A stretch of 64,000 nt of DNA, from the NCBI GenBank assembly GCA_017462015.1, contig JAFTRX010000078.1, positions 42,740 through 106,739 of the forward strand. Reading direction: 5' to 3'. This DNA is from Lentisphaeria bacterium. Lineage in GTDB: Bacteria > Verrucomicrobiota > Lentisphaeria > Victivallales > Victivallaceae. Positions within the stretch are counted from its first letter, which is position 1. Each line of letters begins with the position of its first letter. The notes below the pieces were generated by a model, which did not search any database, was not told where the DNA came from, and worked only from the letters and a program-made list of their open reading frames with translations. Shown in pieces: positions 61,984-64,000 of this stretch. Both the position numbers and the translations under genes were made by a program.

Positions 61984-62619
61984 ATGTATATCGGAAGAAT
62001 CGTTGCTTTCGGAATGACTAAAGACGGCCGTCCCTGCGCCATGTACCGGGTCTCATCCCGTTCTTTCCCCAACCGCCGCGCGGTTGAAAACAACGGCAAT
62101 ATCGCCATCATTCCCCGTGAAGGTGCCGAAGGCGACCTTGCCAAGAATCCGTATATCAGCTACAACTGTCTGCGCATAGCCGGTGAATGGGCCATTGCCA
62201 CCAACGGTTCCCAGACTGACCCCATCACGGAAAAGATCGCCGCCGGAATGCCGGTGCGTGATGCCATCACCATGTGTCTGCTGGCGATGGATTATGAGAA
62301 AGACTCCCTTGACACTCCGCGTGTGGTTGCCGTTGCCGGCAGAGAATCCAAACTCGGTTATCTCGGCATCGTCCGCAAGGATGCGGTGATGGTGCGGGAA
62401 TTCAAGATGGAACCGGGCGTGGCGCGTTATATCTCCACCTACGAGTGCAATGCTCCCTGCGATACCAATGTCGATACCAACTTCGATGCAGCGTGCGAAA
62501 ACTGCGCGGTCAAGTACGTTGTTGACGGCGGTGTTTTTGCCGGTTTTGAAAACCCGGTCACCAGTGCCGCGGCGATCGCCACGGAAGATGGCTTCGCTCT
62601 GGCGACGCTTGTTTGCTGA
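61984..62619 (+). CDS. purO: Archaeal-type IMP cyclohydrolase PurO
   Basis: MYIGRIVAFG...YRVSSRSFPNR...NPYISYNCLRI...TNGSQTDPI...LLAMDYEKDSLDTPRV closely matches the PurO family as I remember it. A GGAGGA SD lies 7 nt upstream. Confidence 0.8.
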   Translation: MYIGRIVAFGMTKDGRPCAMYRVSSRSFPNRRAVENNGNIAIIPREGAEGDLAKNPYISYNCLRIAGEWAIATNGSQTDPITEKIAAGMPVRDAITMCLLAMDYEKDSLDTPRVVAVAGRESKLGYLGIVRKDAVMVREFKMEPGVARYISTYECNAPCDTNVDTNFDAACENCAVKYVVDGGVFAGFENPVTSAAAIATEDGFALATLVC

Positions 62620-62648
62620 ACAACTGAAACATTCTTCGGAGAAGCAGG

Positions 62649-64000
62649 ATGATTGACCGTATTACTGCGGTTGAGATCACGGGAGAGAATGCAGAGATTT
62701 TCTGCCGTGATGAGGTCGGGGAATGTGTGAAAAAAACAGTGCCCTTTTCTCCGTGGCTGCTCGCGGAGAAAGGGGGTGTTGTCCCCCCGAATGCGCATGC
62801 AGTGGAACTTGCCGGAAAGGCGCCGCTGAATCTCCGTTGGGAGTTTGACAACGTAGCAGATTACGATGCCGCGTGTGAAGCGGTGAAGAAAAGTCCCGGT
62901 GTGCTGACGGTAAGGGAGTTGAGTACCCAATTCCTCAGCATCAGCGGGAACCGTTTTTTTAGCGGCATGGATTTTTATGAGCTGCACCGGATGCAGTTTG
63001 CCGTGACTTCTGACGGTGATGCTGCTGAAATCATGTCGATCGAAGTTGCTGACAACCGTGGATACTTTGCCCGCTTTGATGCACTTGAGTGCGGTGGTGA
63101 AGCGGCGGTGTTGGCAAAATTCAACGCTGCGGTCAAAGAATGTGACCCCGATCTGCTTGAGGGTTACAATATTTTTAAAGAAGCCCTGCCGCTGATTGAA
63201 AAGCGGGCGAAAAAGTTGAAATTCAGTTTCGACTGCGGACGGGACGGCGGGGGATTTTCCTCCCGGAAAAGCCGTTTTTCAGTAGCGGAAAAACAGATTT
63301 CCTGTACCCGATATTTTCTTTACGGCAGACAGCTTGCCGATGTGGCGCATCTGGTGTTGTTTTACGATGCCGCGCACCGGGATATGGAAAATTTTGAACT
63401 GGATTATTTGCGGGAATATTTTTCCATCGGATGCAGTGAAGAAACGCAAGTGGTGCAGGAGCTGTCCAATTTACTTTCTCCGGCAAGTTTTTACAAATGC
63501 TGTACTTTGCCGCTGACGTTCCAGGATTGTGTACTGCGCGGCAGCGGTGCGGCGCTGGATGCATTTTTCATTGCCGAATATCAGCGCGCCGGGTATGCAG
63601 TTCCGTATCCGGAGGAGGCGCGGCGTTTTGCCGGAGCGCTGACCGGGGCCGGAGAAGCCGGCGTGTATCATAATGTCCGGCACTGTGACGTGCGGTCACT
63701 GTATCCATCGGTGCTGTTGTATTTGAACCGCTCTCCGGAACGGGATGAGCTTGGAGTTTTTCTGACTGCGCTCTCCCGGTTGCGGCAATTCCGGCTTGAT
63801 GCCAAAGATCAGGCAAAGGCGCTGCCGGAGGGGCGGGAAAAACAGCGGTTGAACGCGTTGCAGTCCACGTTTAAGATATTGATAAACTCTTTTTACGGAT
63901 ACCTCGGTTTTGCGCAGGGCAGTTTCAATGATTACTCTCTTGCGGAAAGTGTCACTGCTTACGGACGGGAGTTGCTGGGGAAACTTGCGGAAAAACTTTC
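62649..64000 (+). CDS. Family B DNA polymerase, N-terminal ~450 aa (continues beyond the window end)
   Basis: Own translation from ATG 62649, open to the window end and absent from the ORF track. Pol motif A reads HCDVRSLYPSVLL and motif B reads KILINSFYGYLG. The exonuclease-domain region aligns by eye with E. coli Pol II (PDLLEGYNIF versus PDVIIGWNVV). Confidence 0.85.
   Translation, partial: MIDRITAVEITGENAEIFCRDEVGECVKKTVPFSPWLLAEKGGVVPPNAHAVELAGKAPLNLRWEFDNVADYDAACEAVKKSPGVLTVRELSTQFLSISGNRFFSGMDFYELHRMQFAVTSDGDAAEIMSIEVADNRGYFARFDALECGGEAAVLAKFNAAVKECDPDLLEGYNIFKEALPLIEKRAKKLKFSFDCGRDGGGFSSRKSRFSVAEKQISCTRYFLYGRQLADVAHLVLFYDAAHRDMENFELDYLREYFSIGCSEETQVVQELSNLLSPASFYKCCTLPLTFQDCVLRGSGAALDAFFIAEYQRAGYAVPYPEEARRFAGALTGAGEAGVYHNVRHCDVRSLYPSVLLYLNRSPERDELGVFLTALSRLRQFRLDAKDQAKALPEGREKQRLNALQSTFKILINSFYGYLGFAQGSFNDYSLAESVTAYGRELLGKLAEKL

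Follow-up and report, generated by a model that had tools for sequence, protein, structure and literature searches.

Can a bacterial family-B DNA polymerase lose its proofreading site and remain a working enzyme, and if so, what kind of enzyme does it become? The question is raised by polB, a gene at the end of a 64,000-nucleotide stretch of Lentisphaeria bacterium DNA (assembly GCA_017462015.1, contig JAFTRX010000078.1, positions 42,740 to 106,739 of the forward strand), called here the window. The first-pass annotation, made from the letters of the window alone, had read polB as an exonuclease-dead bacterial PolB with intact polymerase motifs, a core reading that held on every test we ran. 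The open reading frame (62649..64000, forward strand) is still open at the window end and, as had been anticipated, the gene runs on into the contig, giving a full product of 664 amino acids (aa) (P0002, L002:1-1995; L002 coordinates are used below for features past the window end).

62649..64000, forward strand: polB coding sequence, codons 1-450 of 664, with 643 nt more past the window
L002:1993-1995, past the window end: polB stop codon

Results

Destruction of the exonuclease site

The PolB product matches the DNA_pol_B model (PF00136) with 81.4 bits (E 7.6e-23, cut-off 23). Membership of family B also follows from PolB motifs A, B, C (DTD) and KxY, which were read directly and are kept in the relatives. 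The match to the exonuclease model DNA_pol_B_exo1 (PF03104) is partial and, at 22.1 bits, falls just under the cut-off of 23; relatives with an intact exonuclease site (exo+) score 72-77 bits on the same model. A database search gave closest exo+ relatives of ~720-757 aa and ~43% identity, including that of Victivallis vadensis. In a MAFFT alignment the Lentisphaeria exo+ relatives carry QFDIET at Exo I, HNIFRFDLPYLE at Exo II and YALDDVRET at Exo III. The corresponding positions of the window PolB are as follows.

62991..63011, forward strand: degenerate Exo I, MQFAVTS (aa 115-121), with Asp replaced by Ala118 and Glu by Thr120
63162..63197, forward strand: degenerate Exo II, GYNIFKEALPLI (aa 172-183), with Asn kept, Phe replaced by Glu178 and Asp by Ala179
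63432..63449, forward strand: deletion of 26 aa at Exo III (YxxxD), leaving the remnant CSEETQ (aa 262-267)

All four DEDD carboxylates are absent from the window PolB (A118, T120, A179 and the deleted Exo III). Exo I reads FAVTS where the relatives have FDIET, and Exo II reads NIFKEA where they have NIFRFD. The Asp of Exo II is often still present among exo-dead relatives, whereas the other DEDD carboxylates are not. The exo-dead forms are ~656-681 aa long and, the window PolB included, share both an 11-12-aa deletion in the loop after the Exo I strand and the 26-aa deletion at Exo III; the window PolB is ~70 aa shorter than the described enzymes of group G3, to which it is assigned below.

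The motif correspondences proposed for Exo I (MQFAVTS, D to A and E to T) and Exo II (FD to EA, the present E178/A179) were both reproduced by three alignments. In phmmer searches against solved structures, Thermococcales Exo II YNGDSFDLPYL falls on YNIFKEALPLI and Exo III YSMEDA falls on CSEETQ; in a profile built from 45 family members, FDIET of Pfu PolB falls on the FAVTS column; the third is the MAFFT alignment given above. The alignment register is not in doubt because the blocks flanking the Exo motifs (GMxFxELRRMQF, DPDxLEGxN and GRDG) are strongly conserved. The nearby acidic runs SDGD and SIEVAD, which the first-pass annotation had raised as possible stand-ins for the lost catalytic residues, do not fill that role, being only 13-77% acidic across the exo-dead clade.

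Three further positions, D245, E250 and D293 (63381-63383, 63396-63398 and 63525-63527), are acidic in the exo-dead clade and not in exo+ relatives, and the segment beside the Exo III deletion reads HRDFESFELD in exo-dead forms versus HRNLESYGLK in exo+ forms. We rejected a new nuclease site made of these residues: the change looks like modest drift in an HRxLESYxLK segment that exo+ forms have too. The three columns look like drift or structural compensation near the Exo III deletion.

Conservation of the polymerase site

Motifs A and B are present as first claimed. Motif C, which lies just past the window and for which degeneracy had been feared, has an intact DTD.

63687..63710, forward strand: motif A, DVRSLYPS (aa 347-354), invariant across exo-dead and exo+ relatives
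63873..63899, forward strand: motif B, KILINSFYG (aa 409-417), with K409/N413/Y416 invariant
L002:1375-1392, just past the window: motif C, EMDTDG (aa 459-464), intact
aa 503-509, just past the window: KxY motif, YKAKNYA, intact

Residues D347, Y352, K409, N413, Y416, E459, D461, D463, K504 and Y508 are invariant in 62 + 37 exo-dead sequences, and the same ten are invariant in 54 + 13 exo+ sequences except for one Lys-to-Arg replacement of K504. The loss of the exonuclease site in PolB is confirmed, and the polymerase site is kept.

The gene was retained by selection and is the only PF00136 match in the genome (92.8% complete). When polB was paired with its nearest relative (86% aa identity), ratios of nonsynonymous to synonymous substitution rates (dN/dS) were 0.145 in the N-terminal domain, 0.123 in the exonuclease domain, 0.079 in the polymerase domain and 0.065 in the thumb, and six other exo-dead pairs gave 0.05-0.24 (exonuclease) and 0.06-0.15 (polymerase). 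When compared at equal polymerase-domain divergence, the exonuclease domain of exo-dead forms lies 12-17 identity points below the polymerase domain, whereas exo+ forms show equal conservation of both domains. The dead exonuclease domain is under relaxed yet clear constraint, as expected if it is kept for structure. An AlphaFold2 model made with the family alignment had a mean predicted local distance difference test (pLDDT) score of 91.7 and a predicted template modeling (pTM) score of 0.82, with the exonuclease region (aa 100-300) confident, and Foldseek matched this model to archaeal PolB structures over its full length, exonuclease region included, with a template modeling (TM) score of ~0.8.

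The polB stretch is present in ~20 independent animal-gut metagenome DNA runs from 8 studies, which rules out an assembly artefact. Four metatranscriptome libraries from two studies gave short contigs that fall within polB at identities of at least 95%. That polB is a pseudogene was rejected given the open frame, dN/dS values of 0.06-0.24 and conservation of the gene across the genus.

Assignment to group G3

Group G3 (EpsilonN-like) of the family-B polymerases has in motif C a conserved Glu that PolEpsilonN and B10 have too (Kazlauskas et al. 2020, PMC7544198). In family alignment A1, E459, two residues before DTD, is invariant, and Glu is kept in 104 of the 118 representatives of the wider search described below; on our own reading, E459 is the Glu meant in Figure 4 of PMC7544198. 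The only non-bacterial G3 members are PolBs of Salinibacter and Nostoc phages (PMC7544198). When the exo+ sister from V. vadensis (P0103) was used in tblastn, Salinibacter phages came top (37.6% identity, E 1e-126), followed among phages by Nostoc/Anabaena matches at ~1e-37 to 1e-39 and then T4-like cyanophages at 1e-13. In a profile search against the PDB the nearest structures were archaeal B3 enzymes (7e-54), not Pol epsilon, and those of Pol II (2e-26 for E. coli) ranked behind archaeal B3 and eukaryotic alpha/delta. Judged by the motif C Glu and the phage homologues, placement of the window PolB in G3 is well supported, short of formal proof.

Two other groups were considered. The first-pass annotation had aligned the protein to E. 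coli Pol II (group G1); the motif correspondences so obtained were correct, whereas Pol II as the subfamily was wrong and G3 fits instead. An orthologue of Pol II was rejected since the Exo II signature is GYN in the window PolB and GHN/GFN in its relatives rather than the GWN of G1, the NF004421 score is 73 bits against a 570-bit cut-off (the protein falls far below every cut-off of the NCBIfam Pol II models), and B3 and the G3 phage enzymes are closer. Like G2/archaeal PolB2 (Dpo2), for which no proofreading is expected and which is a candidate for translesion synthesis (TLS) or extension, the window PolB has a non-conserved Exo I and lacks Exo III, which suggested G2/PolB2 membership. However, G2/B2 enzymes have a single conserved Asp and a conserved His in motif C, and a D(K/R) motif (PMC7544198). 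The window PolB has both Asp residues in a full DTD, nests among exo+ Lentisphaeria G3 neighbors and has no mutasome genes adjacent, and the assignment was rejected on motif C and the exo+ neighbors. Its exonuclease loss is independent of, and convergent with, that of G2/B2.

G3 is credited with conserved active sites for exonuclease and polymerase and with a motif that binds the beta clamp (Timinskas et al. 2026, PMC12926913). Lentisphaerae are not mentioned in the text or supplements of PMC7544198 and PMC12926913, nor is Victivallis in the supplements. The window PolB resembles G3 in its N-terminal/exonuclease/polymerase architecture, its motif C Glu (E459) and the phage homologues of its exo+ sisters, and in being chromosomal, single-copy and dispensable. 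It differs in its destroyed exonuclease site, deleted Exo III and lack of a clamp-like tail, so that the lineage departs from the G3 description on two counts, a dead exonuclease and the missing tail.

A missing C-terminal tail

Most exo+ relatives end in QPDLF, QDSLF, QPGLF, DDLFAGL or SPLGI, ~33 residues past a conserved RDEN, and the QPDLF-type tail is probably a beta-clamp-binding motif. All ~97 exo-dead sequences stop ~20 residues past RDEN without a clamp-like ending; the C-terminus of the window PolB (L002:1936-1995, past the window) ends ...KLDELYKQFK. A clamp-like ending is found in at least 39 of ~65 exo+ forms and in 0 of ~97 exo-dead forms, in counts that are not independent (the P and L sequence sets overlap) and that judge the motif from C-terminal endings, so that an internal motif is possible.

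Complex predictions were made for two of the proteins with their own DnaN clamps. That of the exo+ protein from genome G236 scored 0.17 (controls 0.00), below the mark of 0.34, and its sole confident contacts were between QPDLF, the last five residues, and clamp residues 171-176, 242, 247, 320, 346 and 358-362, which we take from the E. coli beta clamp to be the canonical peptide-binding pocket. The window PolB scored 0.00 against the same mark, with zero confident contacts. The predicted contrast between exo+ and exo-dead forms in clamp binding is suggestive only.

Distribution and recurrence of exonuclease loss

A PolB homologue was found in 244 of 351 genomes of the class and in 42 of the 51 genomes of the window's genus. 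Every one of the 32 sequences extracted from this genus (32/32) is exo-dead, and their polymerase motifs do not vary. Three further genera of the family contain exo-dead forms as well, and in one of them (g26) there are exo+ species too. When a tree was built from the polymerase half alone, the exo-dead rows all grouped in a single clade (support 98/98) with three exo+ g26 rows inside it, and a single origin of the exo-dead form was not rejected by the approximately unbiased (AU) test (p 0.39). The shared insertions and deletions favor one exonuclease-loss event in the Lentisphaeria clade. No PolB could be detected in five genomes of this genus and family that are nearly complete (97%): G278, G286, G208, G214 and G217.

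Sampling of 401 genomes across the phylum found the polymerase in 183. Other classes supplied 12 loci: 11 exo+ ones and a single locus (L063 of genome G383) that has independently lost Exo I and Exo III. A PolB homologue from another family of the phylum (G373:C103:4499-6640) is part of a 1592-aa frame that contains a single in-frame TAG, for which fusion, frameshift or recoding is possible.

A search of 1.84 billion representatives returned 395 proteins at E <= 1e-30, from which 118 near-full-length sequences were aligned. The DEDD residues are kept in 72 of the 118; at least one of the four carboxylates, and mostly three or four, is lost in the other 46, and in nearly all of these the Asp triad of the polymerase and the Glu of motif C are intact. 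When a quick maximum likelihood tree was made from the polymerase half, parsimony called for 16 changes to explain the exo-dead state, or at least 9 when only strongly supported branches were counted. Note that distant Exo motifs may misalign, that the tree came from a quick search and that the query itself is exo-dead. One exo-dead clade comprises 10 metagenomic representatives of 720-840 aa (P0137...P0168); relatives of one such protein, P0146, were found in the phylum-wide search at 40-46% identity only. Many G3-like PolBs of 700-840 aa from metagenomic lineages (among P0135-P0235) have degenerate Exo motifs and intact polymerase motifs. Longer homologues of 1000-1740 aa (P0172, P0175, P0193, P0195, P0196 of 1743 aa, P0198, P0229, P0231, P0257, P0261, P0267 and P0268) match the query in two to three separated stretches, which suggests inteins or fused domains.

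Gene neighborhood and other polymerases

Immediately upstream of polB lies purO.

61984..62619, forward strand: purO, IMP cyclohydrolase-like (PF07826, E 2.5e-58)
62638..62641, forward strand: Shine-Dalgarno-like GGAG, 7 nt before the polB ATG, read directly from the sequence

Between the purO stop and the polB start there are just 29 nt, and a consensus scan found no promoter or terminator in this gap. The two genes belong to a same-strand array of asd, a lipoprotein gene, a gene of unknown function, purO, polB, an M20 peptidase gene and a DUF2079 gene. Nearly all exo-dead members of the genus have purO directly upstream of polB, an arrangement not seen in other genera; purO is probably co-transcribed with polB, as context rather than as a functional partner. 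PurO, which is of archaeal type, is 80-99% identical in amino acid sequence in genome pairs (loci L009-L057) in which PolB is 50-86% identical. The first-pass annotation had looked to the genes downstream for partners, but those genes encode the M20 peptidase and the DUF2079 membrane protein, are conserved among the closest relatives only and offer no evident partner. Synteny comparison found no accessory or mutasome gene near polB, the purO adjacency alone being conserved, and that within the genus.

Besides polB, the genome has genes for a canonical Pol IV, for a divergent second Y-family protein, for a single DnaE and for two DnaQ-like proteins (PF00929); DnaE2 was not found in it. The second Y-family protein (L005:575-2113, reverse strand, G000:C35) is 512 aa long and matches Pol IV models only past about residue 117, with scores far short of the cut-offs; this PolY is either divergent or extended at its N-terminus. 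A Peptidase_S24 (LexA/UmuD-type) protein was looked for and not found in the genome at 92.8% completeness, and the lineage may be without a LexA-type SOS regulator.

Discussion

We consider it likely that the window PolB is a folded, competent G3 polymerase that has lost both proofreading and its clamp tail, and that it serves as a non-proofreading accessory polymerase, probably not tethered to the clamp. With its four DEDD carboxylates replaced or deleted, intrinsic 3'-5' proofreading would have been lost irreversibly, and the C-terminal QxxLF-like beta-clamp tail of exo+ relatives seems to have gone too. The vestigial exonuclease domain would be kept as a structural module. An enzyme off the clamp would probably be distributive, and its likely jobs would be short-patch repair, gap filling and extension past lesions or mismatches alongside Pol IV. 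Accurate processive synthesis would not be its task, and it would resemble exo-minus Pol II and, more loosely, Pol zeta or PolB2. We infer its polymerase activity, absent exonuclease activity, lost clamp binding and cellular role from the comparisons above. Exonuclease-inactivated G2/PolB2 and PolA2 have likewise been read as low-fidelity or TLS enzymes (PMC12926913, PMC7544198).

Several observations weigh against this picture. polB is absent from several genomes of the genus and family that are 97% complete; it has thus been lost outright several times in the family and is dispensable. Pol IV and the second Y-family protein are already present, so that a TLS role is not obviously needed, and there is no sign of damage-inducible regulation, given a genome in which no LexA/S24 protein was found and a housekeeping-looking array after purO. 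A few exo+ forms, V. vadensis P0103 among them, also have no tail, and both clamp predictions fell below the mark, so that tail binding by the exo+ form and non-binding by the window PolB both stay predictions. The RNA-library contigs are compatible with polB expression, but DNA carry-over is possible. Finally, G3 is experimentally uncharacterized (PMC12926913).

Neutral decay would explain the same losses differently: in small host-associated genomes, where selection on the accessory G3 polymerase is weak, proofreading and clamp tethering drifted away without any new specialization while the ancestral G3 role was kept, and the gene is heading for loss. The genomes of the genus are indeed small (1.5-4 Mb), 9 of the 51 gave no PolB match, the gene is absent from several 97%-complete relatives, the exonuclease and N-terminal domains are under relaxed constraint, and exonuclease loss recurs in the group. 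Yet the exo-dead form has been maintained down to ~43% identity with invariant polymerase motifs, and dN/dS is ~0.06-0.16 in the polymerase domain and ~0.05-0.24 even in the dead exonuclease domain; such long-term purifying selection speaks for maintenance rather than decay and suggests that the polymerase itself is in use. We consider decay the less probable account, although a serious alternative for the cause. It does not strictly compete with an accessory-polymerase role, from which it differs only on whether the loss was adaptive. Editing in trans, in which a separate DnaQ-like exonuclease would proofread for an accurate PolB, is known for C-family polymerases (PMC12926913), and the genome has two DnaQ-like (PF00929) genes. 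Both lie on contigs other than that of polB, they are expected anyway for Pol III, and purO is the only conserved polB neighbor found. We know of no bacterial family-B case and regard this explanation as improbable.

An inactive pseudo-polymerase, its role now structural or regulatory as is that of the C-terminal half of Pol epsilon, might be imagined, since B-family relics sometimes lose the second active site along with the first. The nine catalytic and nucleotide-binding residues examined are nonetheless invariant in the 62 + 37 exo-dead sequences, and we give this proposal very little credence. Even less can be given to an alignment artefact in which the exonuclease would still be active through shifted or alternative acids. 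SDGD, SIEVAD and the clade-specific D245, E250 and D293 columns offer candidate acids, but the nearby ones are not conserved, the Exo III helix is physically deleted, three independent alignments agree and the flanks are strongly conserved.

Known enzymes offer partial parallels to the non-proofreading accessory polymerase proposed here. E. coli Pol II (G1) is also a bacterial accessory family-B polymerase of the same overall fold, but has an active DEDDy exonuclease, GWN and a C-terminal clamp motif, and is SOS-regulated. Pol zeta, a TLS extender, and Pol alpha combine a folded dead exonuclease domain with an active polymerase, and by analogy the window PolB would most plausibly work as they do, although they are Delta-like, multi-subunit enzymes with C-terminal metal-binding domains and have no link to it beyond the family. 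The actinobacterial PolA2/APEX proteins are likewise an accessory lineage with a vestigial 3'-5' exonuclease domain, read as low-fidelity. They belong to family A, however, and gained a clamp motif inside the vestigial exonuclease domain, whereas the window PolB has apparently lost its clamp motif.

Proofreading loss, often together with the clamp tail, may be a repeated switch in G3, made at least about nine times, from an accurate clamp-tethered enzyme to a mutagenic or lesion-tolerant one. We put this forward tentatively, as possible but doubtful. If true, it would take in a whole gut Lentisphaeria genus and a large metagenomic clade, would mirror in bacteria the transition from Pol delta to Pol zeta and would define bacterial TLS/extender polymerases of a class so far unrecognized.

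Among the groups of bacterial family-B polymerases G3 ranks second in size, and the two surveys by which it is defined describe a high-fidelity, clamp-using enzyme; an exo-dead state has not previously been described for it. Because a gut lineage has fixed and kept an exo-dead, tail-less form and similar losses recur across the group, G3 appears to be functionally heterogeneous. The natural pairs of exo+ and exo-dead orthologues at ~43% identity provide a route into G3 function and into what is gained by dropping proofreading, a matter that bears on the evolution of mutation rates in reduced, host-associated genomes.

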